13,541 nucleotides of DNA from Candidatus Hodarchaeota archaeon (GTDB lineage: Archaea; Asgardarchaeota; Heimdallarchaeia; Hodarchaeales; Hodarchaeaceae). The notes beneath the pieces were generated by a model. The model saw nothing but the letters and a program-made list of their open reading frames with translations, ran no database searches and was not told the origin of the DNA. The first letter of the stretch is position 1. Every line of letters starts with the position of its first letter. The DNA is taken from assembly GCA_029856365.1 (NCBI GenBank), contig JAHQWW010000103.1:1-13541 (forward strand), in the 5' to 3' direction. The translations under genes were made by a program, and so were the position numbers. Of this stretch, positions 1 through 13,541 are shown piece by piece.

Positions 1-1
1 A

Positions 2-895
2 ATGACTGAGGCCTTAGGCCTTGCAGTAATTACTGAACTTCCACTTGTAATAATTAATGTACAGAGAGCAGGTCCTAGTACAGGAATGCCAACAAAACCA
101 GAACAAGCCGATCTATTGCAAGCACTATTTGGTCGAAATGGAGAGTCCCCATTACCAGTGATTGCTCCACAAACACCTGGAGATTGCTTCGAGATTGCTA
201 TCGAAGCAGTGAGACTTGCTACTAAATATATGACACCTGTTATAATCCTTAGTGATGGTTTTGTCGCAAATAACATTGATCCATGGAGAATCCCTGATGT
301 AAATCAATACCAAGTAATAGAAGTTCATCATCCATCAGAGGATATCCTTCAAAATTCTGCAAATTTCTATCCTTACATTCGTAATGAGAATTTAGTCAGG
401 CCATGGGCAATTCCTGGGACTAAGGGGTTAGAATATCGTACTGGGGGGCTTGAGAAGGAGGAGAAAACTGGTAATGTCAGTTATGATCCTTTAAATCATG
501 AAAAAATGGTCAGAATAAGAGCAGAAAAAATCAGAAGGATCGCAAGTGACATTCCACAGCAGAAGATAGAAGGTCCAAAAAACGGTGATTTACTAGTCCT
601 CAGCTGGGGTTCGACATATGGAGCAGCTCATTCAGCGTCGGAAAATATAAGGAAACAGGGTTATAGTGTTGCGAATGCAAATCTGAAATACCTCAATCCT
701 TTTCCTAGTAACTTGAACGATATTCTAGATTCTTATGAAAATATCTTAATTCCTGAGATGAATTTAGGGCAATTACAATTTTTAATTCAAGCACGGTATT
801 CTATAGAAACAATTGGGTTAACAAAAGTACAGGGAAGACCAATCCAAGTGAGAGAGATTCAAAATAAAATTTTGGATGCCTTAGGAGTGAAATAA
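2..895 (+). CDS. korA: 2-oxoacid:ferredoxin oxidoreductase alpha subunit, 5'-truncated by the window edge
   Basis: Motifs ELPLVIINVQRAGPSTGMPTKPEQADL, GRNGESP, TPVIILSD, SWGSTYG and EMNLGQL are typical of the C-terminal half of OFOR alpha; followed after 4 nt by the beta subunit. Substrate specificity cannot be determined. Confidence 0.93.
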   Translation: MTEALGLAVITELPLVIINVQRAGPSTGMPTKPEQADLLQALFGRNGESPLPVIAPQTPGDCFEIAIEAVRLATKYMTPVIILSDGFVANNIDPWRIPDVNQYQVIEVHHPSEDILQNSANFYPYIRNENLVRPWAIPGTKGLEYRTGGLEKEEKTGNVSYDPLNHEKMVRIRAEKIRRIASDIPQQKIEGPKNGDLLVLSWGSTYGAAHSASENIRKQGYSVANANLKYLNPFPSNLNDILDSYENILIPEMNLGQLQFLIQARYSIETIGLTKVQGRPIQVREIQNKILDALGVK

Positions 896-899
896 TACA

Positions 900-1934
900 A
901 TGAAAGGATCGTCCTCAAACCAAAATACAGCTTCTATTTTAGCTCCAAAAGACTTTGCTACAGATCTTGATGTTCGCTGGTGTCCTGGCTGCGGAGATTA
1001 TGGTATCTTGGCTAATATTAAGAAAGTTTTACCAACTTTAGACATACCTAAAGAGAATATTGTTTTCATTAGTGGTATTGGGTGTAGCTCGCGATTTCCT
1101 TATTATATGAATACGTATGGAATGAATACTATTCATGGTAGGGCCCCAGCAATCGCCACTGGACTTAAATGTAGTCGTCCTGACCTTTCAGTCTGGGTAA
1201 TCACTGGAGATGGCGACGGATTGAGCATTGGAGGGAATCACCTAATGCATGCAATGCGGAGAAATGTTGATATCAAGATCCTTCTATTTAACAATCAGAT
1301 TTATGGTTTAACTAAGGGACAATACTCACCAACTTCAATTTTTGGTAAACAAACAAAATCGTCACCAAGAGGTTCAATTGATTATGCTGTCAATCCTGTT
1401 TCATGGGCACTTGGAGCCGAGGCAACATTTATTGCCAGAACTGTTTATTCATACGGAGACCATATGAGAGAGGTTCTTCAACGAGCTGCAAACCATAAGG
1501 GGACAGCTTTTATAGAAATCTATCAGAATTGCTTGATTTTTAATGATGGGGCTTTTAAATACGCCACAGATAAAGAATTACGTTATGATAACATCCTAGA
1601 ACTTAAACATGGAGAACCGATGGTTTTTGGTCGAGATCTGGAAAAAGGTATTTTTCTTCACGGCTTAACACCTAAAGTCATTAAATATAAAGAAGCAGGG
1701 TTTACCCGTGAAGATTTACTTTATCATGATGAATATGCCACAGAACCTACCTTAGCATTCTTTTTATCACGAATGCGGCACCCTAAGTTTCCTGAACCAG
1801 TTGGCATATTTCGAGCAATACAAAAGGAAACATATAATGAGATGTTAGAACAATCAATGAAAGAAGCCAAGGAGGCTCGTGCCAAATCACTCCATGATTT
1901 ACTTTGTGAAGGAGAAACTTGGAATGTTACCTAG
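900..1934 (+). CDS. korB: 2-oxoacid:ferredoxin oxidoreductase beta subunit (TPP-binding)
   Basis: WCPGCGD, SGIGCSSR, HGRAPAIATG, TPP motif GDGDGLSIGGNH...NNQIYGLTKGQYSPT, and QNCLIFN. Confidence 0.95.
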   Translation: MKGSSSNQNTASILAPKDFATDLDVRWCPGCGDYGILANIKKVLPTLDIPKENIVFISGIGCSSRFPYYMNTYGMNTIHGRAPAIATGLKCSRPDLSVWVITGDGDGLSIGGNHLMHAMRRNVDIKILLFNNQIYGLTKGQYSPTSIFGKQTKSSPRGSIDYAVNPVSWALGAEATFIARTVYSYGDHMREVLQRAANHKGTAFIEIYQNCLIFNDGAFKYATDKELRYDNILELKHGEPMVFGRDLEKGIFLHGLTPKVIKYKEAGFTREDLLYHDEYATEPTLAFFLSRMRHPKFPEPVGIFRAIQKETYNEMLEQSMKEAKEARAKSLHDLLCEGETWNVT

Positions 1935-1977
1935 TTTGAAGAAACTAATTGCTAATTTAAATTAAGAGGTAACTTTG

Positions 1978-2814
1978 ATGATAAGATGTGCTGTTTGTGG
2001 ACATGAGAATTTACCTGGATCGCTTTACTGTTCCAATTGTAATAGTGATATTGTTATCGAAGAAAGAAAACCAATGACGGATTCTAGAATCGAAAAAGCA
2101 ATATTAGAGGATTGTCTTGGGGAAGTTGGAGGAGAAGAATCTCTAGCTCTTGAAGTCTCGCCAGATAAACCAGTTAAAGAAGTAGTTGGGTTGATGATTG
2201 ATCATCAAAAATGCTCAGTGGTCGTTATTGGATTAGATAGATCGATAAAAGGGATATTTACAGAACGATCTCTTCTTCGAAGAGTATGCAATGAATCACC
2301 AATAAATTTAGATAAACCAATTCGAGAAGCAATGCTTAAATCGCCTGTTGTTCTCAAAAAGACTGATTCAGTAGCATATGCTCTCCATATGATGGAAGTT
2401 CAAGGATATTCCTATGCAATCATTGAAGATGATCCGATTCGGGTAATCAACATTCGAGATATATTACACTATATAGTTGAGTTACATCCAAGCTTGGGGG
2501 GCTTTGATAAGGTTCTAAATGCTTTTAAAGGGGCTATTCTTAGTAATAAATTATCTGAAGAAGATAAAGAGATTATTCACCACATTGGGAAAAGTAAAGA
2601 ACTTCTTTACAAAGCTTTCACAATAGCTCGCAGAACTAGGAAATTGGCGGAAACTGAAAGAATAAATAGGGAAACTTTCTTGAAAAATTTTATCCCAGCT
2701 GTAAAGGAGATTTCAAATGAAGTTGAGTACTTCTCTCATGATGAATCAGCTATTCTTGGAAGATTAATTAGGTTATTTGAAAAAGAGAGAGATTTTCTTT
2801 TGTCAAATGATTAA
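1978..2814 (+). CDS. Zinc-ribbon + CBS-pair protein with an extra C-terminal helical region
   Basis: N-terminal CAVC-x10-CSNC; CBS motifs VSPDKPVKEVVGLM, GIFTERSLL, DSVAYALHMM, INIRDIL. GAGGT at 1966-1970 favours ATG 1978 over TTG 1975. Confidence 0.82.
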   Translation: MIRCAVCGHENLPGSLYCSNCNSDIVIEERKPMTDSRIEKAILEDCLGEVGGEESLALEVSPDKPVKEVVGLMIDHQKCSVVVIGLDRSIKGIFTERSLLRRVCNESPINLDKPIREAMLKSPVVLKKTDSVAYALHMMEVQGYSYAIIEDDPIRVINIRDILHYIVELHPSLGGFDKVLNAFKGAILSNKLSEEDKEIIHHIGKSKELLYKAFTIARRTRKLAETERINRETFLKNFIPAVKEISNEVEYFSHDESAILGRLIRLFEKERDFLLSND

Positions 2815-2853
2815 TTCTCTCACTTCAATTTGCAGGTTTACCACATGAGAGAA
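2815..2853. terminator. Candidate terminator hairpin between convergent genes
   Basis: Inverted repeat TTCTCTCA (2815-2822) / TGAGAGAA (2846-2853) in the 69-bp gap between convergent stop codons; the loop is long (23 nt). Confidence 0.3.
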
Positions 2854-2883
2854 GTCCTCAAAGCCATTTATGATTAAGTGAAT

Positions 2884-3867
2884 TTAGAGAATTTGTCGTT
2901 TAATCTCTGATTTATCTTTCATATGTTCTTGTTTCCAGTATGGATCGCGAATATAAAGATATGCGCCATGAGCAGCTAGAGCTCCTTGAGCAGCTGCTAC
3001 TGTAGCTAACTGGTAGGGAGTAACAATATCTCCTGCAGCAAAGACTCCTTCAATATTTGTACGTTGAAGTTCATCAGTTTTAAGGAACTTTCCTTGGAAT
3101 TCTAAACCTAAATCCTGAAAAATTTCAGTGTTTGGTGTTAACCCTACTGCGAGGATGACTTTCTCAACGTTAAGTTCTATTTTCTCTCTAGTTTTAACAT
3201 CCTCTAGGATAGCTCCTTCTACTTTAAGTTGCCCAAGAATCTCTTTTATAGTTACATTTGTTAAAATTTCAGCCATTTTTTCCTTTTTTACTAGTTCCAA
3301 GTTTGTCTCTGATGCCCTGAAATCACTCCGACGGTGTGCTAGATATATTTTTTTTGCAATTTTGTTTAAATCTATAACCGCATCAATAGCGGTATCTCCC
3401 CCCCCTATAACTAGTACGCGACGATTGTAAAAGATTTCTGGTTCGATCACATATGGATATACGCCTCTGTCCTTCTTAGAGAGTTTTGTTTCACCAGGGA
3501 TCCCAAGTTCATTCGGTTTCATTCCTGTGGCAATGATGACTGATTTTGCTTGAAAGATTGTACCTTCGGAAGTTTCAACTTCTAAATTCTTACGTATTTT
3601 TGTCACTCGTTCTTTTATGAGATGAACTCCGTGATCCGCAGCTTGTCGAACCCACTCTGAAACGAGATGTTCTGCACGGATACGAGGCGTACCAGGATAA
3701 TTGTAGATCTTCTTTTTTGGATATATAGTACTTAAAAGTCCTCCCCACGTTCCTCCCTCGAAAACTACCGTAGTTAATCCTTTAAGAGAAGAAATAATTC
3801 CAGCAGAAAGCCCTGCTGGGCCACCTCCTACAACAATGACATCAAAATCACCAGATAAACCTACCAA
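2884..3867 (-). CDS. Thioredoxin-reductase-fold NAD(P)/FAD oxidoreductase lacking CxxC (YumC-like ferredoxin/flavodoxin-NADP+ reductase type)
   Basis: FAD motif GGGPAG, ATG motif, NADPH motif GGGDTA plus HRRSDFRA, and RTNIEGVFAAGD. GGLLSTIYPKKKIY resembles YumC. The TrxR CxxC site reads GVYPYVIEP and the protein has no Cys at all. TTG start with AGGTGA SD. Confidence 0.88.
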   Translation of the reverse strand: MVGLSGDFDVIVVGGGPAGLSAGIISSLKGLTTVVFEGGTWGGLLSTIYPKKKIYNYPGTPRIRAEHLVSEWVRQAADHGVHLIKERVTKIRKNLEVETSEGTIFQAKSVIIATGMKPNELGIPGETKLSKKDRGVYPYVIEPEIFYNRRVLVIGGGDTAIDAVIDLNKIAKKIYLAHRRSDFRASETNLELVKKEKMAEILTNVTIKEILGQLKVEGAILEDVKTREKIELNVEKVILAVGLTPNTEIFQDLGLEFQGKFLKTDELQRTNIEGVFAAGDIVTPYQLATVAAAQGALAAHGAYLYIRDPYWKQEHMKDKSEIKRQIL

Positions 3868-3907
3868 AATTCAATCACCTGGATTATAATTATAAAAACA
3901 AATTATA

Positions 3908-5005
3908 TCAATTTAGGTTTAAAATAGATTTTTTAATTTCAAAAGCATGTTGAGACAATCGTTCTTGAGCAAATGTCCCTGACAGCTCCCATATATTTCT
4001 AATCTTCCCTTGGCGATCGATTAGAAAAGTTGTTCTTTTAGCCAATCCAACTTCGTCATTTAAACAACCATATTTGGTTGAAATATCTTTTTCTATGTCT
4101 GTTATAAGTGGAAATGGAAGCTCTTGGTCGTTTCTAAAGGATTGTAAATCAGTAATGTTATCAACCGAGATCCCAATGACTTCTGCATTTAGATTTTTCA
4201 GCTCATTATAAGCATCACGAAATCCTTGTGCTTCAATAATACATCCTGGAGTGTTCGCCTTGGGGTAAAAGAAGAGAACAACATCTTTTTTGTTTCGATA
4301 ATCAGAAAGTCTTATTATTTCACTTCTATCTGTTTCCGCAACAAAGTCAGGAGCAAGATCACCTATTTGCAAAGAACCACTGTGTGTTTCAACTTTTGTT
4401 AGTGATTGAGTCTTAGTTGAATAACTGTCCTTGATTCTTCCCCAGACAGGGAGATTTTTATCCATTTTTAGCATCGTAGGCATGCATAAAGGACAATTCT
4501 CATCATGAGAACTTCCATTAATGGGTGAGGCGACATGAAACCAAGGGTAGATTATACTTGAAAGCAGTTCCTTTTCAAATGCTTGGACTCTTGGATTGTT
4601 CAATCGATCCCAGGGAGTTTCTTGATATTCCTCATCTAATAACCAAGAAATACTTTTGAAGAGGTTATTGACAATTTCCATTGTTTCAGTATTAACATCT
4701 CCCTCCTTAAATGCTGCACAAATAATATTATCTGATTTTGTATAGAAGAATAATAATTTCAAAGACCCAATACTCATACTATGAACTTTAGTGTTTGATT
4801 CAGCGAACATCCCTGGCATTGTGGAGACAGCAGCTAAAAAAGCTGTCAATAATTCGTCTTTTTTTCCTAACAATCCACAAACATTTCCCCAACACTTAGA
4901 ATAAATCGGTTGTCCCGAATCTTGATAGATGATGAGGTATTCTAAGTTAATTCCCCTAGATTGATTCTTTCTTTTAAAAATATTTAGTATGGATTTGAGT
5001 TTCAT
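3908..5005 (-). CDS. Fusion of an N-terminal longin-like domain and a C-terminal BCP/PrxQ peroxiredoxin
   Basis: Residues ~212-365: LQIGDLAPDF, VVLFFYPKANTPGC (PxxxTxxC), VIGISVD, LPFPLITD, RTTFLIDRQGKIR. Residues ~20-155 show a longin-like beta-beta-alpha-beta-beta-beta-alpha-alpha pattern (YLIIYQDSGQPIYSK, DELLTAFLAAVS, VHSMSIGSLKLLF, NIICAAF). The Prx call is strong; the longin call is pattern-based. Confidence 0.85.
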   Translation of the reverse strand: MKLKSILNIFKRKNQSRGINLEYLIIYQDSGQPIYSKCWGNVCGLLGKKDELLTAFLAAVSTMPGMFAESNTKVHSMSIGSLKLLFFYTKSDNIICAAFKEGDVNTETMEIVNNLFKSISWLLDEEYQETPWDRLNNPRVQAFEKELLSSIIYPWFHVASPINGSSHDENCPLCMPTMLKMDKNLPVWGRIKDSYSTKTQSLTKVETHSGSLQIGDLAPDFVAETDRSEIIRLSDYRNKKDVVLFFYPKANTPGCIIEAQGFRDAYNELKNLNAEVIGISVDNITDLQSFRNDQELPFPLITDIEKDISTKYGCLNDEVGLAKRTTFLIDRQGKIRNIWELSGTFAQERLSQHAFEIKKSILNLN

Positions 5006-5080
5006 TTATTCCTCACATAATTTAATATATTCTTATTAATATTATTGGGATTACATTAAAACAATTATTGGGTAATTAGA

Positions 5081-5632
5081 TCAGGAACATGATCTTAAAA
5101 TCATTGGCATGCATATTGGGCAATTATCTTCGTGTTTATCTCCATTATTTGTTAATACAAGATGAAACCAAGGGTGAATAGCATTCTTCAGCAGTTCTTT
5201 TTCAAATGAGCGGACTTTTGGATCGTTTAATCGGTCCCAGGGTGTTTCAGGAAAATCCTCATCTAATAACTGAGAGATATCCTTGAAGAGATTATTTACA
5301 ATTTCCATTGTATTTTTATTTACGTCTCCCTTTGGAAATGCCAAACATATAATATTTTCTGATTCTGTATATGAAAATAACAATTCTAATGATCCAATGC
5401 TCATACTATGGACTTTTTTATCTGATTCAGCAAACATTCTTGGCATTGTGGAAACTGCTGCCAGAAATGCTGTCATTAATTCGTCTTTTTTTCCCAACAT
5501 CCCGCAGACATTACCCCAGCATTTTGCATAGATAGGTTGGCCCGAATTTTGACAGATAATGATATATTCTAAACTAATTTGAGTAGGTTGTTTTTTTCTT
5601 TTGAAGACATCTAATAAAGTATTAAATTTCAT
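5081..5632 (-). CDS. Stand-alone longin-like protein, paralog of the N-terminal domain of 3908-5005
   Basis: Aligns without gaps to residues 1-180 of the downstream fusion (125/180 identical by hand count); retains CWGNVC and HxxNCPxC. Confidence 0.82.
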   Translation of the reverse strand: MKFNTLLDVFKRKKQPTQISLEYIIICQNSGQPIYAKCWGNVCGMLGKKDELMTAFLAAVSTMPRMFAESDKKVHSMSIGSLELLFSYTESENIICLAFPKGDVNKNTMEIVNNLFKDISQLLDEDFPETPWDRLNDPKVRSFEKELLKNAIHPWFHLVLTNNGDKHEDNCPICMPMILRSCS

Positions 5633-5879
5633 TTATTCATCACTTATATCAGAGTCTTTGAATAAAATACATAGTCTTCAAGAAGACATTGATTTGATGA
5701 ATTATAATTTTTTCAATATGAAATTCGTTATCAACTAGACCCATATCAAAAATTAAATGGACTGATTAAATATATTAATCCCAATAATCTTTGATAATAT
5801 AGACTATTTCTTCGCAAATATTATTCTGAATCTCAAAGTCTTGATTTCAGTAAATATCAACAATTAACAAGGTGGAAAT

Positions 5880-6011
5880 TGGGAATGTAGAATGTGCGGA
5901 TATACCTATGATGAGGAAGTCAAAGAACTTCCCTTTGAAGAGCTTCCAGACGATTGGGTTTGTCCTTGGTGTAAAGCTCCAAAAAAATACTTTGTAAGAA
6001 TCAATAACTAG
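5880..6011 (+). CDS. Short-chain rubredoxin reading frame, not in the ORF track; no in-frame start codon before the first Cys, so possibly a pseudogene
   Basis: Translates WECRMCGYTYDEEVKELPFEELPDDWVCPWCKAPKKYFVRINN*, with CxxCGY...FEELPDDWVCPxC. In-frame TAA at 5865-5867; nearby GTG (5872) and TTG (5879) are out of frame. Confidence 0.85.
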   Translation, partial: WECRMCGYTYDEEVKELPFEELPDDWVCPWCKAPKKYFVRINN

Positions 6012-6030
6012 CTAGAAGGATTATTTAACA

Positions 6031-6594
6031 TTATTTTTTGATATATTTATTCATGTAGATGAACTCATCTAAAGGTTTTCGTGTAGGACGTTTTACTTCA
6101 CTTTTTTTTTGATAGTCTTCAAAAAAGTCTGGAATTTTATCTGATTTTTTCCCAACGATTATTAAGGTTATCAGATGCATTTCATCAGGAAGTTCCAAGA
6201 GTTCCTTTACTTTTACTGGATCAAATCCTGCTATTGGATGTGCAACTAAACCTTGATCAGTTAAATGTAGAATCATAAATGCAGTTGCCATTCCTGTATC
6301 AAATAGATAATATTGTCGGTCACTTATTACACAATCCAAATCAATTCTGGAAAATACTGCAATGATCATACTAGCAGCTTTTGCCCATTTATTTCCTTTT
6401 GAAAGACCCTCATTCTGCAATTTGGTGAGTAAGATTTTTTCGAAAACGAAGATATACCTCCATGGTTGTTTATTGAAGCATGAGGGAGCTAATTGAGCTA
6501 TATGTGCGGTTTTTTCGATTAATTCTTTTGTTATTTCGACGGATTCTAATGCTCTATATGCTCTTCTTCTATTAACCACTTCTTCAAATGTCAA
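6031..6594 (-). CDS. Nitroreductase family flavoprotein
   Basis: RRAYR, LAPSCFNKQPWRYIFV, FDTGMATAFMILHLTDQGLVAHPIAGFD and RKPLDEF. Start reassigned to TTG 6594 because GGTGA lies 7 nt upstream; the ORF track starts at 6615. Confidence 0.92.
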   Translation of the reverse strand: MTFEEVVNRRRAYRALESVEITKELIEKTAHIAQLAPSCFNKQPWRYIFVFEKILLTKLQNEGLSKGNKWAKAASMIIAVFSRIDLDCVISDRQYYLFDTGMATAFMILHLTDQGLVAHPIAGFDPVKVKELLELPDEMHLITLIIVGKKSDKIPDFFEDYQKKSEVKRPTRKPLDEFIYMNKYIKK

Positions 6595-6627
6595 TCCATT
6601 ATCACCTTGGCTCAAGGAAAGTATTGA

Positions 6628-6664
6628 AGAAAAAATAGATATAGGAATCTCTTAAAAAGAGATT
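6628..6664 (-). terminator. Hairpin plus T-tract between rubrerythrin and nitroreductase
   Basis: AATCTCTT-AAA-AAGAGATT (6646-6664) immediately after the rubrerythrin stop, followed on the minus strand by a T-rich tract. Confidence 0.45.
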
Positions 6665-6667
6665 TTC

Positions 6668-7171
6668 TTATTCTATCTTAATAAATCTCTCGTGAGAGGC
6701 ACCACAAATGGGGCATTTATCTGGGATCCCATCTTCAATCGTGTAACCACAGACTTCACACACGTAAAGTGGCTTTTCTGGAAGGTCATTACCACTTTCA
6801 ACCGCTTTTAGCGCACGTGAATATAAGTCATGGTGTATTTTCTCTACTTGATTGGCAAAATCAAACGTCCGTTCCGCAGCCTTCCTCCCTTCTTCCTTGG
6901 CGTCCTCCAAGAATTCAGGATACATGTTAGTGAATTCATAATGTTCTCCTTCTATTGATGCTTTAATATTTTTAAGTGTCGTGTTGATTCCACCATAAAC
7001 ACGTAGGTGATTATGAGCATGTACAGTTTCAGCGTGAGCAACTGCACGAAAAAGACGTCCTACCTGAGTAAATCCATCTTTTTCAGCTTTAATTGCGTAT
7101 GCTAGATATTTTCGATTTGCTTGACTTTCACCAGCAAAAGCTGCCATTAAATCTTCTTCTGTTTTTCCCAT
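6668..7171 (-). CDS. rbr: Rubrerythrin
   Basis: AFAGESQANRKY, AETVHAHNH, EGEHYE..MYPEF and VEKIH diiron ligands, plus C-terminal rubredoxin-like CEVCGY...CPICGA. Confidence 0.96.
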   Translation of the reverse strand: MGKTEEDLMAAFAGESQANRKYLAYAIKAEKDGFTQVGRLFRAVAHAETVHAHNHLRVYGGINTTLKNIKASIEGEHYEFTNMYPEFLEDAKEEGRKAAERTFDFANQVEKIHHDLYSRALKAVESGNDLPEKPLYVCEVCGYTIEDGIPDKCPICGASHERFIKIE

Positions 7172-7407
7172 AACTATCAGCTCTAACTTTTCTCACAGAA
7201 ATTGAACCATTTTTCATTTCTTAATCGAAAATGTAAATTTCTGAACAATCTTCGGGAATATATTTTTATTTATTAAGTATGTTCGTCCTTTTTTCGAATT
7301 AGACAACAACAAAAGCAAACCCATTAATATTTACTATAACCAGCCCTTTAGATTTTTTTCCAGCATTCCTTTTAATCATATTATTCCTGTCAAATGAATG
7401 AGTAATA

Positions 7408-8144
7408 ATGTCCCCTACAACTCATTTTGACGATTTAAATGCACTCAAACCTTATATTGATAATAATGGTCTCGTGATTATAATAGTCTGAAAGAAGATA
7501 AATGGGCAGTAGATCAAGTTCAATGTTTGAAAACAGCAGATTTACAATGTATGAATCGTAATGAAGAGTTCGCATTTTGGTTGAATGCTAACAATATCCT
7601 TATTATTAAAGGGGTATATCTAGAGTTAGAACGAAATCCAAAATGGAAGGGGAATGTTTCCCTTTTTAGCAAAATAAGATTCTTTTTCTTAAGGCGATTC
7701 AATGTGGCTGGAAAAAAAAATAACTTACACAATTTCGAAAATAAAATTTTATGAAAACGTTTCAAAGATCCTAGAATTCATTTTTCGATCACTTGTGCCT
7801 CAAAATCGTGTCCCAATTTACCTGATAGGCTTTTCCATGCAGAAACATTAGATAATCATTTAGATTCACTTACTATAAACTTCATTAATGATAAGGATCA
7901 TGTCTTCTTAGATACAGAGAAGGGTATTTTGTATTTAAATACAATATTTAAGTGGTATGCGAAAGATTTTGAAATTTATGGTGGAGTGAAAAAATTCATA
8001 CTATATCATTTACAGGATGTTGGGAAAACACTCATTGAATAATACAAAAGAGCAAGAATTGAATATTTAAAGTATGATTGGTCTATTAATGCCCAAGATG
8101 CTCCTAAAAGAACATTGAAAATTGATGTTATAAGTAAAAACTGA
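7408..8144 (+). pseudogene. DUF547-family pseudogene
   Basis: Reconstructed MSPTTHFDDLNALKPYIDNNGLV/DYNSLK...FAFWLNANN...FENKIL*KRFKDPRIHFSITCASKSCPNL...IFKWYAKDF...LIE*YKRARIEYLKYDWSIN. Disablements: 1-nt frameshift at ~7475, TGA at 7752-7754 and TAA at 8040-8042. Confidence 0.87.
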
Positions 8145-8155
8145 AATAAAGGGAA

Positions 8156-8836
8156 TTACTCGTTGAATGATACTGGTTCATTTACATAGTCTTTCTCGAA
8201 TTTATTCATTATAAGTTCTCCCAAGCGATAAAAAAAATATCCGAGGAAGAAAAAGGACGCCAGAATCATTAGAATCGAGATTAGAGAAAAAATATATGAC
8301 AATTCATTTGATAAAAAGGGTGAATACCCCATCTGACATAAACATGTACTTATCGCAAAACCATCGGTAATGAATCCTAAGGAAGAGGGGTGGATTGGTA
8401 AAAGGTTGGGAAGATCAGCTAACAAGCCAAAGATAAAATAATACCTTCCTATATTGTACGAGATTTCCGATTTCATTCGAAGCAATGAAAAATTACAAAG
8501 AATTGTAAAAATCATTACTGAAACAGATCCAGCAAGCATAACAATTATTGATTGCCAGCAATAAGGAAATTCATTAGTAATTAAGCAAGCACAACAGAAT
8601 TCACCGTCAAATAAATAAAATTCCAAGTGAGGATTCAAAGAAGGTAAAAATAGACTTATTGTAAAGAGATGCCCCAATTCATGAATTAGAGTAAAGGGAA
8701 AATAAAGGAAATTAAAACTTATTACTAGAAGTGGAGATAACAAGGAAAAGATTGGAAGTAGGATTGTGAATATGATCGAGAATAAGATCCTACCTTTTCT
8801 CGCACCTAAAAATGATTCATGTTCTTTTTTTGGCAT
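8156..8836 (-). CDS. M50/site-2-protease-like membrane zinc metalloprotease
   Basis: Highly hydrophobic; TLIHELGH (HExxH), LAGS, and NLLP...TDG third-ligand motif. Confidence 0.72.
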   Translation of the reverse strand: MPKKEHESFLGARKGRILFSIIFTILLPIFSLLSPLLVISFNFLYFPFTLIHELGHLFTISLFLPSLNPHLEFYLFDGEFCCACLITNEFPYCWQSIIVMLAGSVSVMIFTILCNFSLLRMKSEISYNIGRYYFIFGLLADLPNLLPIHPSSLGFITDGFAISTCLCQMGYSPFLSNELSYIFSLISILMILASFFFLGYFFYRLGELIMNKFEKDYVNEPVSFNE

Positions 8837-8900
8837 GATTTCTATGTAACCAAATAAAAATTATCTATTAAATCTTCCGAAAATCAGATCATATAATTGA

Positions 8901-8925
8901 TATATATAAACTTAACAATTGTTAA
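8901..8925 (+). promoter_or_regulatory. TATA box followed by a perfect 14-bp palindrome (candidate operator) upstream of doxX
   Basis: TATATATAAA at 8901-8910, then TTAACAATTGTTAA at 8912-8925, in the gap between divergent genes. Confidence 0.5.
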
Positions 8926-8957
8926 TTAGTATTATCAAACCTATGAAGGGAAAATAA

Positions 8958-9500
8958 TTGAATTCTAAATATGAAAAATATAGTTTTGAACAAATTACTC
9001 TTGGTGTATTAAGAATAGTGATGGGATTTGTGTTTCTATGGCCATTCCTAGATAAGATGTTTGGATTAGGGTTCGCTACGACACCTGAAAACTCGTGGCT
9101 TGCTGGTGCATCTCCTACACAAGGATTCTTAAAATTCTATGGTGTGAATCAAAATAGTCCATTTGCTTTTCTTTTCTCTGACATCTTAGGTGGTACATAT
9201 CAATTAGTGGATATTGCATATATGGGGATGCTATTGTTTGCTGGTATCGGCCTTATGTCTGGGGTTCTTGTAAGACTATCGAGTATTTCTACAATAATCT
9301 TTCTAATCTCAGTATATCTTTCCGAGTGGATTATTACTCCTGCTCAAGGTACGATGGTATTCAATCCTATAATCGATGAACATATCATCTATATTCTTGT
9401 ACTATTCTTGTTCATCATAATACCAGTTGGTAATTACCTTGGCTTAGGTGAAAAATGGTCAAAGCTTTCGTTTGTAGAGAGATATCCAATCTTGAAGTAG
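8958..9500 (+). CDS. DoxX/DoxD-family membrane protein (thiosulfate:quinone oxidoreductase-related)
   Basis: LRIVMGFVFLWPFLDKMFGLGFAT...W..GASPTQGFL, NPIIDEHIIY and GNYLGLG..W; about four TM segments; TTG start. Confidence 0.85.
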   Translation: MNSKYEKYSFEQITLGVLRIVMGFVFLWPFLDKMFGLGFATTPENSWLAGASPTQGFLKFYGVNQNSPFAFLFSDILGGTYQLVDIAYMGMLLFAGIGLMSGVLVRLSSISTIIFLISVYLSEWIITPAQGTMVFNPIIDEHIIYILVLFLFIIIPVGNYLGLGEKWSKLSFVERYPILK

Positions 9501-9556
9501 AGATAAACTCCCCTCTTTATTTTTTTATTCTATATACATATTTTGATCAAAAAGAA

Positions 9557-9949
9557 TTATGGTGTTGATAATTCCTTATTTTTACATTTTATACAAAAGC
9601 CATAAAAATTAGTTTCTGCAGTGTTAATTTTAAAATCTTTCTGATTCTGTATTAATAGCAAAGCATAATCTATTAATTCTTTGGAATTAAAATCTGTAAT
9701 TTTCCCACAAGATTTACAAATAAGATGATGATGAGCTTCTATCTTTGCTTCAAATCTTGAAACTCCCTTCACATTAACTTCCCTAATCAAACCCTCTTCA
9801 GTTAGCACATTTAAGTTTTTGTAAACAGTGGCTTTAGTTATTCTTGGTAAGCTTTTCTTAACTTCTTCAAAGATCTCTTCTACTGTAGGATGATTGAGAT
9901 TGTCCTTGAGAAAATCTAGGATAGAAATTCGCTGATTGGTATATCTTAT
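9557..9949 (-). CDS. perR: Fur-family, PerR-like transcriptional regulator (~130 aa) with apparent ATA start
   Basis: The frame extends 47 codons upstream of the tracked GTG: (I/M)RYTNQRISILDFLKDNLNHPTVEEIFEEVKKSLPRITKATVYKNL. It continues with RFE...HHHLICKSCGKITD and GFCIKC; the Asp in KITD is PerR-like. Confidence 0.88.
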   Translation of the reverse strand: MRYTNQRISILDFLKDNLNHPTVEEIFEEVKKSLPRITKATVYKNLNVLTEEGLIREVNVKGVSRFEAKIEAHHHLICKSCGKITDFNSKELIDYALLLIQNQKDFKINTAETNFYGFCIKCKNKELSTP

Positions 9950-10061
9950 TGTGATCCTTCCTTAAAACATTGTTAGGATATAAATCCGAATTTAACCAAT
10001 ATATTCTACATTCAGTTAAAAAAAATTTTGAATTAAAAAAGAGGAAAAGGGGTAAATGTTT

Positions 10062-10619
10062 CTAGTGAAGAAACTTTGAAACATAAGGACTGTTCACGCC
10101 ATTAGGTCTGAGAAAATGTCCAGAGGGCCCTTTTCCCAAAAATTCTGTGAACCATGCTTCATGCTCAATCTCTTCGTGTAGAATTGCTAAAGCTAAATCA
10201 TAGGTTCTATGATCCTTCCCAACGGTCATATTGCAGATTTCAGTGTATCCTCGGACTGCGCACTGTTCTGCTTTTAGAAGGACTCTCACAATTTCTTTCA
10301 CATCAGTAATATCCTTCGGCAAATACGCAGGCGGACAAGCTGACACATCGTGGAATTCTTTCATATCACCAGGTAATTTTCCACCAAGCTCATAGATCCT
10401 AGGTACCAATGCCTCAAAATGATTTCTATCTTCTATTCTTGCATCTTCAGCAATCTTTTTCAAACCTTCTCCGTCAAATCCAATGAGATTTGTCCGTAAT
10501 ATGGTATAATAATAATATGTCGTTAATTCTGCTGCTGCATTTTTGATCAATAGTTCCAACAATTTATCGACATCTATACCAGCTTTTTCTACCATTTTTC
10601 TAGCTACTTCTGCTGTCAT
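10062..10619 (-). CDS. dpsL: DPS-like protein (DPSL/thioferritin), archaeal type
   Basis: [52 protein letters not shown], Cys pair (SACPPAYLP / AEQCAV), [10 protein letters not shown] and [16 protein letters not shown] 10619 preferred over TTG 10628. Confidence 0.93.
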
Positions 10620-10668
10620 ATTTTTCAAATCCTTTTGTTTTAATATATATTAATTAATAATCAAAAGT

Positions 10669-10717
10669 TTAGTTATTAACTAATATTTATTATTAATAAA
10701 TATCAAATATTATTTGA
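10669..10717. promoter_or_regulatory. Three phased 7-1-7 palindromes (candidate operator array)
   Basis: TTAGTTA-T-TAACTAA, TTTATTA-T-TAATAAA and TCAAATA-T-TATTTGA, centred at 10676, 10693 and 10710, each separated by TA. Confidence 0.6.
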
Positions 10718-10846
10718 GACTATAGTTCCGAAAAAATTAAACTGAATTATAAAAATAGAAGCTCAAAAAGATTTGAATACAACAAAAAAAATATATAAAT
10801 TCAAGTGTGTGATGAAAATTATCTCAATAATAGGAGTCTGTAAAGA

Positions 10847-11326
10847 TTGGGAATAAAAAGTGTTGATCTTGTAAAGGGAAATAAAGAAGAGATAATTGCA
10901 GAGTTGAATAAAGCATACTGTGATGAGTGGTTAGCCTACTTTCAATACCTTAGTTTAGCAACTATCGCAAATGGCAGGGGATCCTTTCAATTTGCAGATG
11001 CAGTGAAAGAAATTGCAGAAGAAGAGCTAGAACACGCTGATGAATTAGCTGAGAGAATTCTTGAGCTGGGAGGTCAGCCAATTGTTATATGGGATGAAGT
11101 CAACCAACATGCAAATTGTAAATATCCAAACACCCTACCAGATGCCAATGATTTGTCCGCTATGGCAGATTTAATAAAAGAGGATGAACGATGTGCCATT
11201 GGAGTCTATAACAAACTCATGGAGTTAACTAAAGACAAAGATTTTCGAACCTACAACCTCATGATGCATATCTTAGAAGAAGAAGTTGTACATGAAAATA
11301 AAATGATGCAATTCCTCGGGGAATAG
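10847..11326 (+). CDS. Ferritin-like protein, bacterioferritin-related / bacterial-type DPSL
   Basis: LNKAYCDEWLAYFQY, EEELEHADELAERILELGG, Cys pair ANCKY / DERCAI, and HILEEEVVHE. TTG start with AGGAG SD; ATATATAA at 10791-10798. Confidence 0.9.
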   Translation: MGIKSVDLVKGNKEEIIAELNKAYCDEWLAYFQYLSLATIANGRGSFQFADAVKEIAEEELEHADELAERILELGGQPIVIWDEVNQHANCKYPNTLPDANDLSAMADLIKEDERCAIGVYNKLMELTKDKDFRTYNLMMHILEEEVVHENKMMQFLGE

Positions 11327-11495
11327 TTTCAATCAGTGTTACTATTTCTTTAACATTCTTTTTTTTCCTAAAACACACTAGTTCTGTGAATATTACTTAC
11401 TTCTAAAAGGAAAGGGAGGAGATTACAAATTTGAGAAGTATTTTAAATGCTATCGGATTCAAAAAAGTGTACTCTTGAGACCTACTAGATGCTGA

Positions 11496-12356
11496 ATGAA
11501 AATGAATCTTCTCTCGTTCTACAACTTAATTCTTTTAACTATTATTCGAATAATTGGTTTGGGTCTTTCTATTGAATTCTTAATCAATCTAAGAAAGAAG
11601 AGATTCATTGCACCTGTTGCGGGCTGGAGTTGCTGGGTAATAGCTGGATTATTACCAATTATTGCCGATAATCTCACCATAGGTGTCATATCTGAAATTC
11701 TCCTTCTTTTAAACGCGATTCTGAGTGCTGAAGGGCTGATGCTTATCTTTATGGGAGTTTTATCGTATTTTCGTTTTGTTCCAGGAAAAATAATGTTTTT
11801 AGTGACTCTATTTTATCTGATATTTCCCCTTGCAGCTTATGGACTATTTGGGGAAACACTCGCATTATCCTCTGCAGTTGCAATGATTTTTGTATCATAT
11901 GTTGTTATATCTTTAATGATAATATTTAAGAGAAAAGAAATCAATAGGACAATAGGAGGAGGGGCTAAATGGGTGTACTTAGCTCTTATCAGTGTTATCT
12001 GTTATTTAATATTGTCATTCATCCTTATGTTTTCAGTAGAGGATTTTTCTTACGGTTTATATTATTCCACAAATATTCCAGCTATAATCAGTAATTATAC
12101 GGTGGGAATTCTACTTACTATCCTTATCATTGTTTTATTCATTCATCTTGAAAGAGGTATCGCATATAGGGACAAAGATCAGCTGAAAGATAAATACTCA
12201 CACAATATTGGAAATATTCTCCAGATTATTATCAGCGCAGCTTCCATAATCGAGATGAGAGGAACGTTGGATGAATCAGAGAAACCTAATATTTACTTAA
12301 TTCAGGAAAAATGTAATGAAGCAGGGGAATTAATTAAAGAGATCAGAGATCTTTGA
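11496..12356 (+). CDS. 7TM membrane protein with a C-terminal HisKA-like (DHp) segment and no HATPase domain
   Basis: Seven hydrophobic segments, then YSHNIGNILQIIISAA (H-box-like) and a second helix ending ELIKEIRDL*. Confidence 0.7.
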   Translation: MKMNLLSFYNLILLTIIRIIGLGLSIEFLINLRKKRFIAPVAGWSCWVIAGLLPIIADNLTIGVISEILLLLNAILSAEGLMLIFMGVLSYFRFVPGKIMFLVTLFYLIFPLAAYGLFGETLALSSAVAMIFVSYVVISLMIIFKRKEINRTIGGGAKWVYLALISVICYLILSFILMFSVEDFSYGLYYSTNIPAIISNYTVGILLTILIIVLFIHLERGIAYRDKDQLKDKYSHNIGNILQIIISAASIIEMRGTLDESEKPNIYLIQEKCNEAGELIKEIRDL

Positions 12357-12953
12357 TTGTTATTTTCCAAACCAAAATCATATTCAATACCTCCTAAGGC
12401 ACCAAAGACGTTAAAATTGAAGTAATCATCTGTAATAGTCTTGTGGAGTAAATTAGTGACATTTTTATCTCAAATATAGCTGTATGGATTTTCGTAAAAC
12501 AATAACAATTGTTTAGAAGTATGATCTACGTATAATAATTAATATAAAGAGTTAATGACATTAATAAATCAAACACATTGGAGAAATTGCTCTAATCACT
12601 ATTTCAAGTTGACATTCAATTACTAATTAGTTTAATAGATCTTAGTAGATCCTTTAATAACCAGAATTCTTAGTGTAATAATAAATTAAATGGTATAATT
12701 ATTAAAATTAATGAATCGTTATCGAGAATCAATATTTGAGAAGAAAGAGCCATTATTAATAGTTAACAATTGAGAAAAAACCACAGGATTGTACAAAAGC
12801 AATTTTACTTTACAATGATTATAACTAAGAAGTAACTATAAAATGAAATCTCATTAGCAAAACAAAAAAGAAAGTTAAAAGCCTTGTCACTAAATTGAAG
12901 CACAACAAAGAATAATATGATAAGAAGTGTATACTTCACTAAGAGGAAAGAAA

Positions 12954-13241
12954 ATGTTAAGAAGCCAACGGAAGCCCATATTGCCACCTCCTCGTGCTGA
13001 ACATGAGTATGTAGTGTCAATACTAACTGAACAGTGTGATGGGTGTGAATTATGTGTGGAATTCTGTCCAACAAACGTATTAGAGATCGATTTGGAAGCA
13101 TATAACTCACGAATGCTACATCCAGTTATTGCTGTTAAGCCTGATGAATGTGTAGGATGTCAGCAATGTGAGAGGATTTGTCCCTCAGTCTCAATCTTTG
13201 TTACTGAAATTCAAATATCACAGGAGGGTATAGATACATGA
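12954..13241 (+). CDS. korD: 2[4Fe-4S] ferredoxin-like OFOR delta subunit
   Basis: CDGCELCVEFCP and CVGCQQCERICP; ATG 12954 after GAGGA; stop overlaps the next start (ATGA). Confidence 0.88.
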   Translation: MLRSQRKPILPPPRAEHEYVVSILTEQCDGCELCVEFCPTNVLEIDLEAYNSRMLHPVIAVKPDECVGCQQCERICPSVSIFVTEIQISQEGIDT

Positions 13242-13541
13242 GTAGTAGTAAAAATGGTAAACTTATTTTAACCACTGGTAATTATGCGGTAGCTGAAGGC
13301 GCGATCGCGGCTGGGTGTAGATTTTTTGGTGGATACCCAATCACTCCTTCTTCAGAAATTGCGCATTACATGTCTAGGCGTCTACCCCAAGTTGGTGGGA
13401 AGTTTATCCAAATGGAGGATGAACTTGCTTCAATAGTTGCTGTTGTTGGTGCTTCTTATGCTGGTGTAAAAGCAATGACTGCAACTTCAGGGCCAGGATT
13501 TTCACTTATGGCTGAAACTGTTGGTCTTGGAGTGATGTTAG
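13238..13541 (+). CDS. korA: Second 2-oxoacid:ferredoxin oxidoreductase alpha subunit, 3'-truncated (not in the ORF track)
   Basis: MSSSKNGKLILTTGNYAVAEGAIAAGCRFFGGYPITPSSEI...FIQMEDELASI...AMTATSGPGFSLMAE; YPITP motif; GGAGG SD upstream. Confidence 0.92.
   Translation, partial: MSSSKNGKLILTTGNYAVAEGAIAAGCRFFGGYPITPSSEIAHYMSRRLPQVGGKFIQMEDELASIVAVVGASYAGVKAMTATSGPGFSLMAETVGLGVML

Follow-up and report, generated by a model that had tools for sequence, protein, structure and literature searches.

Peroxidases which are tethered to a second cysteine-bearing module, or which transfer oxidation to one, are known from the peroxiredoxin-glutaredoxin fusions, the AhpF-type tethered redox domains and the Orp1-Yap1 and Tpx1-Pap1 relays. 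Longin and roadblock domains belong to the eukaryotic-signature proteins that are used to argue that the Asgard archaea had pieces of the machinery for trafficking and GTPase regulation. That longin domains serve as GTPase platforms is established for TRAPP, Mon1-Ccz1 and others (PMC10933270), and longins of Asgard archaea are already known to be fused to GTPases, two-component domains and modules of the DENN or NPRL2 type (10.1101/2020.10.19.343400; PMC10933270). Here we describe a gene of a Candidatus Hodarchaeota archaeon (GCA_029856365.1) located at nucleotides 3908–5005 (minus strand) of contig JAHQWW010000103.1, of which positions 1–13,541 were analyzed; this whole 13.5-kb stretch is referred to as the window. 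The gene very probably encodes a longin-fold domain with a four-ligand Cys/His site, fused to a BCP-type peroxiredoxin whose catalytic residues are intact. Neither a longin-peroxiredoxin fusion nor a Cys, Zn or metal site in a longin domain is mentioned in the two papers cited above or in the literature searched in full text.

The gene is an uninterrupted open reading frame (ORF) of 365 codons, followed by a stop codon at 3908–3910. A preliminary description of this stretch, which named no strand, had assigned an N-terminal domain and a BCP/PrxQ protein to one gene. This is borne out by the 365 amino acid (AA) minus-strand product, in which Pfam AhpC-TSA (PF00578) was found at residues 214–337 (E-value=2e-38; 131 bits against a cut-off of 26), while a plus-strand reading of 3908–5005 is ruled out by a translation riddled with stops. 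The N-terminal region of approximately 180 AA is a separate domain, as had been proposed: a free copy of it, a protein of 183 AA, is encoded at 5081–5632 (minus strand), 75 nt upstream of the fusion, and the two are 69% identical over 180 AA without a gap. Thirteen further clusters (90% identity) of 361–369 AA match the fusion over its full length at 71–90% identity. The assemblies that carry it come from NCBI, JGI, ENA and Logan and are labelled Heimdall, Hod or Promethearchaeota, and one homolog lies on a single contig of 4.94 Mb (CP070695.1). Two highly diverged proteins, P0135 (360 AA) and P0167 (341 AA), are likewise fusions to AhpC/TSA, and their N domains are 25–29% identical to that of the window protein. 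Because the junction recurs across independent assemblies, 14 clusters in all, and in two deeply diverged clades, an assembly chimera, which the preliminary description had named as a possible flaw, is excluded. The public records label these genes "peroxiredoxin" or "hypothetical protein". Conservation among fusions was counted in a set of 17 proteins.

The fold of the N domain was investigated by modeling, by structure searches and by sequence profiles. AlphaFold2 (AF2), run on a family alignment of 45 sequences, gave a model with a mean predicted local distance difference test score (pLDDT) of 85.4 and a predicted template modeling score (pTM) of 0.82. Its strands (E) and helices (H), namely E20–28, E33–38, H42–67, E75–79, E82–88, E93–100, H106–126 and H138–155 (pLDDT 85–88), follow the order beta-beta-alpha-beta-beta-beta-alpha-alpha, which is the longin topology, in which one face of a five-stranded sheet bears a single helix and the other face the two C-terminal helices. 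From this model and the structure matches the longin-fold core was placed at residues 20–155 (4541–4948, minus strand), or to residue 158 in the description of the fold. When the model was compared with 48,161 PDB representatives using VIA-align, a search independent of Foldseek, the top 30 were all longins (Z 7.4–11.6), the best having Z 8–11.6 over 105–135 residues. They included synbindin (Z 11.6), TRAPP subunits (approximately 10), sedlin and VAMP7 (both 9.9), and Sec22 and Lst4 (both 9.6); the Lokiarchaeal Roadblock-Longin protein scored 8.8. Roadblocks (MglB, LAMTOR and those of Asgard archaea) matched more weakly, with Z 6–7 over approximately 100 residues, and no GAF, PAS or profilin fold occurred in the top 50, the first two being the folds that the preliminary description had set against its own longin call. 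With Foldseek against PDB, a search it had recommended for the N domain, every significant match was to a longin or roadblock (TRAPP, adaptor sigma, zeta-COP, LAMTOR, SRX, Mon1-Ccz1), with E-values of approximately 3e-4 to TRAPP, AP-sigma and LAMTOR chains.

The sole Pfam family that recognizes this domain is Fuz_longin_1 (PF19036; cut-off 26.1 bits). It matched residues 23–87 of the window protein with 14.6–16.2 bits and the free paralog with 18.8 bits, and at E<0.1 it was found in 24 of the 45 family members (best E-value=1.5e-6), one of which, P0123, exceeded the cut-off with 27.1 bits. A profile of the family alignment produced chance matches only (E≥0.08) against PDB sequences, and the ESM Atlas, with only unnamed clusters from archaea and a single Roadblock/Fuz_longin_1 cluster (0.90), added little. 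Since the AF2 topology, the ranking of PDB structures and the family matches to Fuz_longin_1 agree, the longin call stands. Two other identities were considered and rejected. A roadblock/LC7 domain (MglB, LAMTOR2), which has the order alpha-beta-beta-alpha-beta-beta-beta with a helix at the N-terminus and no longin alpha3, does not fit the two confident C-terminal helices, and the roadblock matches are weaker and shorter; a tri-longin RabGEF architecture, as in Mon1, Ccz1, Fuzzy and HPS1, is not present in a protein with a single longin domain, the rest of which consists of a connector and the peroxiredoxin.

A conserved Cys/His cluster, which had not been picked up in the preliminary description, distinguishes this domain. 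Two of its residues, C38 (4892–4894) and C43 (4877–4879), lie in the longin core; the others belong to a C-terminal loop at residues 156–178 (4472–4540), which holds H157, H167 (4505–4507), C171 (4493–4495) and C174 (4484–4486), all on the minus strand. Together they would form a putative metal or thiol site. The motif C38-x4-C43...C171 is nearly invariant, with C38 present in 40 of 42 sequences, C43 in 40 of 41 and C171 in 41 of 42. The fourth ligand position is taken by C165 in 29 sequences (pattern C-x5-C) and, where C165 is missing, H167 and/or C174 substitute for it (pattern H-x3-C-x2-C). The substitution was counted in the clade of the window protein and about eight other sequences; it is seen in the window fusion, the free paralog and P0122, P0123, P0128, P0129, P0135 and P0145. 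Many family members possess exactly four cysteines, all at the positions of the site. Because the fourth ligand shifts while the other three stay fixed, these residues are taken to be no chance cysteines but a metal site or, failing that, a thiol cluster with a function; the first of these is what the sequence pattern suggests. In the model, residues 161–170 of the loop have a pLDDT of approximately 62–68.

Between the two domains lies a connector, residues 179–210 (4376–4471, minus strand), which is predicted to be ordered (pLDDT 81–89) and comprises a W-x3-[IL]-x3-Y helix at 187–194 and then a beta hairpin (198–207) leading into the peroxiredoxin. This region had been described as an S/T/K-rich linker of approximately 30 AA. 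The composition is as stated, 13 of the 30 residues from 183 to 212 being S, T or K, but a plain linker it is not, being conserved in 17/17 fusions and predicted to be ordered. The same helix occurs in stand-alone members of the family. The full-length model has a pLDDT of 88.4 and a pTM of 0.72 which, with the conservation and predicted order of the connector, suggests that the longin and peroxiredoxin domains are held in a fixed arrangement. At the other end of the longin domain, the family alignment and low pLDDT delimit a basic, amphipathic extension, residues 1–19 (4949–5005, minus strand; hydrophobic moment approximately 0.55). The free paralog has the same 19 residues (5576–5632, minus strand), and most of the family lacks them. 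The N-terminal helix was of low confidence in one model, was absent in the full-length model and is likewise missing from most members. The extension may be a membrane- or partner-binding helix.

The peroxiredoxin domain, of the BCP/PrxQ type, occupies residues 211–365 (3911–4375, minus strand), with the peroxidatic cysteine, C255, at 4241–4243. Its closest solved relative is Bcp1 of Sulfolobus solfataricus (3drn; E-value=3e-25 to 6e-26), and it falls below the NCBIfam equivalog cut-off (99.7 against 140). Residues P248, T252, C255 and R324 (P-x3-T-x2-C plus the Arg) are conserved in 17/17 fusions. A resolving cysteine five residues after the peroxidatic one (Cp+5), the mark of the atypical 2-Cys subtype, is absent from 17/17, position 260 being occupied by Q, E, H or R (Q260 in the window protein). 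In a first comparison this cysteine was present in 31/31 unfused homologs of at least 200 AA and 0/17 fusions, but among the 116 closest unfused BCPs of normal length only 54 possess it. It is therefore an optional feature, and its loss as a trait specific to the fusions was withdrawn. An extra cysteine, C314, is found in the clade of the window protein and not in the other two fused clades. Ahead of the last helix there is a tail motif, W-x-L-[ST]-G-x-[FY]-[AV]-Q; 16 of the 17 fused proteins have it, and none of 120 unfused ones.

The fused peroxiredoxin domains come together as a single clade in a maximum-likelihood tree (Shimodaira-Hasegawa-like approximate likelihood ratio test, SH-aLRT, 95). 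The tree of the N domains is poorly resolved: the fused ones are not one group in the best tree, their monophyly is not rejected (approximately unbiased test, p-AU 0.39), and the free paralog of the window is sister to the fused N domain with a support of 100. The single peroxiredoxin clade and the fusion-only tail motif indicate that the fusion is old and was retained while the N domains diverged to 25–29% identity. The simplest history is thus one old fusion, kept through deep divergence, with a later duplication giving rise to the free copy in the genus of the window. The genome also specifies a canonical thioredoxin reductase (345 bits, contig C36), three thioredoxins and four other AhpC/TSA proteins, because of which the fused peroxiredoxin is regarded as an accessory enzyme and not as the only peroxidase of the cell.

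The distribution of the N domain was defined by an exhaustive HMMER search of 1.8 billion representatives with residues 1–185. Only 53 clusters were obtained at E≤1e-3, mostly stand-alone proteins of 175–240 AA; the family is small and was seen in this analysis in Asgard genomes only. Its profile also picks up, with weaker E-values, ordinary longin proteins of approximately 160 AA in 375 of 399 Asgard genomes; PF19036 again matches one such protein. These generic longins possess neither the Cys cluster nor the C-terminal loop. Several stand-alone members of the family (P0131, P0133, P0136–P0138, P0144, P0147 and P0154) carry aromatic/basic tails of 20–30 residues after the W-x3-L-x3-Y helix. 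The tails are too weakly hydrophobic for a transmembrane segment (maximum KD15 ≤1.7) and resemble helices that bind membranes peripherally. In the fusions, it is the peroxiredoxin domain that stands at this position. A 395 AA ORF of another genome (G079; L024:910–2097, plus strand) fits the Cys4-longin profile at positions 9–189, and no Pfam domain was found in its remaining 200 or so residues; it may represent another fusion partner of the family. Two Loki-type ORFs (254–262 AA) were considered as redoxin-longin fusions and rejected, being plain longin multi-domain proteins that lack the Cys site.

The fusion is located among redox genes. Forty nucleotides downstream of it, at 2884–3867 (minus strand), is the gene for a flavoprotein of 327 AA resembling thioredoxin reductase (TIGR01292; 237 bits against a cut-off of 343), the translation of which contains no cysteine at all. 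It is directly downstream of the fusion in the 5/5 other congeneric genomes tested, at 88–94% identity, and is a probable operon partner; an NAD(P)H oxidoreductase of the ferredoxin/rubredoxin type is a likelier identity for it than a thioredoxin reductase. The co-oriented triad of free longin, longin-peroxiredoxin and flavoprotein was found in 6/6 fusion-bearing genomes of the genus. Around it are genes for a nitroreductase, a rubredoxin, a rubrerythrin, a Fur/PerR-type regulator, two DPS-like ferritins and DoxX, together with two 2-oxoacid:ferredoxin oxidoreductase operons, and the same block is present on the 4.94-Mb contig, which looks closed, as a syntenic locus of 19 kb. This setting points to oxidative-stress defence rather than to GTPase signalling.

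Two of the neighboring genes have unusual starts. In the Fur/PerR-type gene (9557–9935, minus strand) the ORF with a canonical start covers the C-terminal 83 AA only; in-frame codons upstream, none of them an ATG, GTG or TTG back to the previous stop, still encode the winged-helix part. This points to a miscalled gene or to a start codon outside the canonical set, and not to an obvious frameshift. At 5864–6011 (plus strand) a rubredoxin-like frame has both Cys pairs and no canonical start before the first of them. A 46 AA rubredoxin has been called at the matching place in a syntenic locus (L007).

How the two domains might work together can be put in the form of a mechanism, which we favor tentatively and at somewhat less than an even chance: a hard-wired redox relay from the peroxiredoxin onto the longin platform, the purpose of which would be defence against oxidative stress and not just bulk detoxification. 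The Cys/His site would bind a metal, as a Zn site or as an Fe-S or Fe centre, and the fused and free longin copies would pair in the manner usual for longin domains. The peroxiredoxin domain would act as the peroxide receptor and become sulfenylated at C255; the thiols of the longin site, in the tethered domain or in its partner, would then resolve the sulfenylated cysteine or take over its oxidation. Transfer of oxidation would switch the state of the longin module, and a reductant, either the thioredoxin system of the genome or the neighboring flavoprotein, would reset it. The narrower proposal that H2O2 toggles the binding state of a metal/thiol longin dimer, made up of the fused and the free copy, by way of the tethered peroxiredoxin is possible and rather doubtful.

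Several observations weigh against such a relay. The missing Cp+5 cysteine is not particular to the fusions, being shared with about half of the closest unfused BCPs, and in the window clade C314 could serve as the resolving residue. The free paralog and the flavoprotein accompany the fusion in one genus only; the locus of P0167 has neither, and a 219 AA gene upstream of P0167 that was considered as a free paralog was rejected (hhalign probability 0.2). The genomes with the triad are close kin, so that the 6/6 synteny amounts to approximately one observation. The stand-alone members are found outside redox neighborhoods, so the Cys site may be purely structural: at 14 loci of other lineages the stress genes of the window are essentially absent nearby, the exceptions being a peroxiredoxin homolog approximately 4 kb away at one (L019) and a weak DPS-like match beside P0127 (L008/L009).

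The last of these points is shared with the alternative that survives best, itself a doubtful possibility, according to which the protein is a plain thioredoxin-dependent BCP and the longin a structural or oligomerization module with a structural Zn site, nothing being sensed or relayed. The intact catalytic residues of the peroxiredoxin and the canonical thioredoxin and thioredoxin reductase in the genome fit this explanation, as do the half or so of the closest unfused BCPs that likewise have no cysteine at Cp+5 and a public annotation which reads simply peroxiredoxin; and since the free family sits in non-redox contexts, the Cys site would predate any redox role. Set against it is that the fusion was retained although its members have diverged deeply, and that the connector is conserved and ordered and the tail motif confined to fusions, which suggests that the two domains work together; the genome, moreover, already holds four other peroxiredoxin genes.

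A second alternative, which we consider unlikely, makes the longin an electron carrier: the Cys4/Cys3His site, with a dithiol or a redox-active centre (Fe or Fe-S), would pass electrons from the flavoprotein to the peroxiredoxin and so replace thioredoxin. The operon order longin, longin-peroxiredoxin, flavoprotein in 6/6 congeneric genomes would suit such a chain, as would a flavoprotein without the CxxC that a real thioredoxin reductase needs and a peroxiredoxin without a cysteine at Cp+5. Cys-Pro dipeptides are present at C171 and often at C165; we take these to resemble Fe-S ligand motifs, and C171-P-L-C174 to resemble the CPxC motifs of redoxins. However, the second Cys of the CPxC is missing in most family members, the flavoprotein is linked to the fusion in one genus only, and the adjoining rubredoxin and rubrerythrin are more conventional partners for such a reductase. 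We know of no electron carrier with a longin fold that could serve as a precedent.

The preliminary description had drawn a different conclusion from the fold, namely that the longin is a small-GTPase platform and that the fusion couples peroxide status to GTPase or membrane signalling. We regard this as improbable, and the coupling is unsupported by the neighborhood, which consists of redox and oxidative-stress genes: neither the 13.5-kb window nor the syntenic 19 kb of the 4.94-Mb contig holds a small GTPase gene. The role of the longins of TRAPP, Mon1-Ccz1 and others as GTPase platforms (PMC10933270) speaks for it, and the weak Pfam signal is indeed to the Mon1/Fuz longin family; yet some longins bind no GTPase (SNAREs, adaptor sigma subunits, SRX). 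The aromatic/basic tails of some free members could bind membranes, and both window paralogs have the basic amphipathic N-terminus. The free family was seen in about eight independent contexts, and in two of these GTPase genes of the Arf/Ras type occur approximately 2–4.5 kb from free members; by a rough estimate, not a computed one, this is near the level expected by chance in the GTPase-rich Asgard genomes. The direct neighbors of free members are metabolic genes (acyl-CoA dehydrogenase, DUF35-like).

The first of these two contexts is in another Asgard class. At L013:1576–7552 (plus strand) and seven syntenic loci (L012, L014, L015, L017, L020, L022 and L023), a stand-alone Cys4-longin gene ends a co-oriented array that specifies a 293 AA protein with a C-terminal Arf-like GTPase domain, two unannotated proteins of approximately 120 AA, a 484 AA coiled-coil protein, a DUF35/ChsH2-like Zn-ribbon-OB protein and an acyl-CoA dehydrogenase, the Arf-like GTPase fusion being 4.5 kb upstream of the longin. 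A functional link to these neighbors was considered unconvincing, the loci representing one synteny block among related genera. In the second (L008:8564–9812, minus strand), two adjoining Arf/Ras-like GTPase genes are 2 kb from the Heimdall-type P0127 and on the opposite strand to it; P0127 lies beside a DUF302 gene, and its sequence overlaps with the beginning of an unannotated gene of 282 AA.

Lastly, that the whole is an artefact, either an assembly chimera or an N domain of GAF, PAS, profilin or roadblock fold, is very improbable and effectively already refuted: what can be said for it is that the Pfam longin match of the window protein itself is below the cut-off and that the profile search of PDB sequences came back empty, as against a junction common to many independent assemblies, including the 4.94-Mb contig, a confident model of longin topology and a structure search headed by longins alone.

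Almost no archaeal longin or roadblock protein has a known function, and here this fold is part of the same polypeptide as an enzyme whose chemistry is known, within an oxidative-stress island. The fusion is consequently a concrete handle on one family of Asgard longins, which can be assayed for metal content, peroxide-dependent disulfides and the binding of partners. Should the relay that we favor be true, the Heimdall group would possess a peroxiredoxin-based redox switch on a longin platform, and this would be relevant to the way in which oxygen tolerance and regulatory complexity came together in that lineage; if the platform is in addition toggled by peroxide, the closest archaeal relatives of eukaryotes would provide a case from archaea in which a longin-type platform is under redox control. 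Should the relay be false, there still results a corrected annotation for the genes labelled "peroxiredoxin" or "hypothetical protein".

Compared with known systems, the N domain has the same fold as the TRAPP longins synbindin/TRAPPC4 (2zmv) and sedlin/TRAPPC2 (2j3w), VAMP7, Sec22 and the Lokiarchaeal Roadblock-Longin protein (8yqg), with Z 8.8–11.6 over 117–130 residues. Its sequence is only 8–13% identical to these TRAPP, SNARE and Lokiarchaeal longins, and it differs from them in its Cys/His cluster and its extra W-x3-L-x3-Y helix; to our knowledge no solved longin has such a site. It is fused, moreover, to an enzyme and not to a SNARE, GTPase or DENN module. With the PF19036 longins (the first longin of each of Fuzzy, Mon1 and HPS1) it has a sequence signal in common, although the window protein remains under the cut-off and possesses one longin instead of three. 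The small PF19036-like longins of Asgard archaea are found by the family profile but are without the Cys cluster and the C-terminal loop. The peroxiredoxin domain shares with Bcp1 (3drn) and other BCP/PrxQ proteins the AhpC-TSA domain, the P-x3-T-x2-C motif and the conserved Arg, and differs from them in the absence of the Cp+5 resolving cysteine, in a tail motif of its own, in an N-terminal extension of 210 residues and in a score below the NCBIfam equivalog cut-off. The hybrid and relay peroxiredoxins provide a functional analogy for the mechanism that we favor, with the difference that the partner would here be a longin fold and not a thioredoxin-fold domain or a transcription factor.

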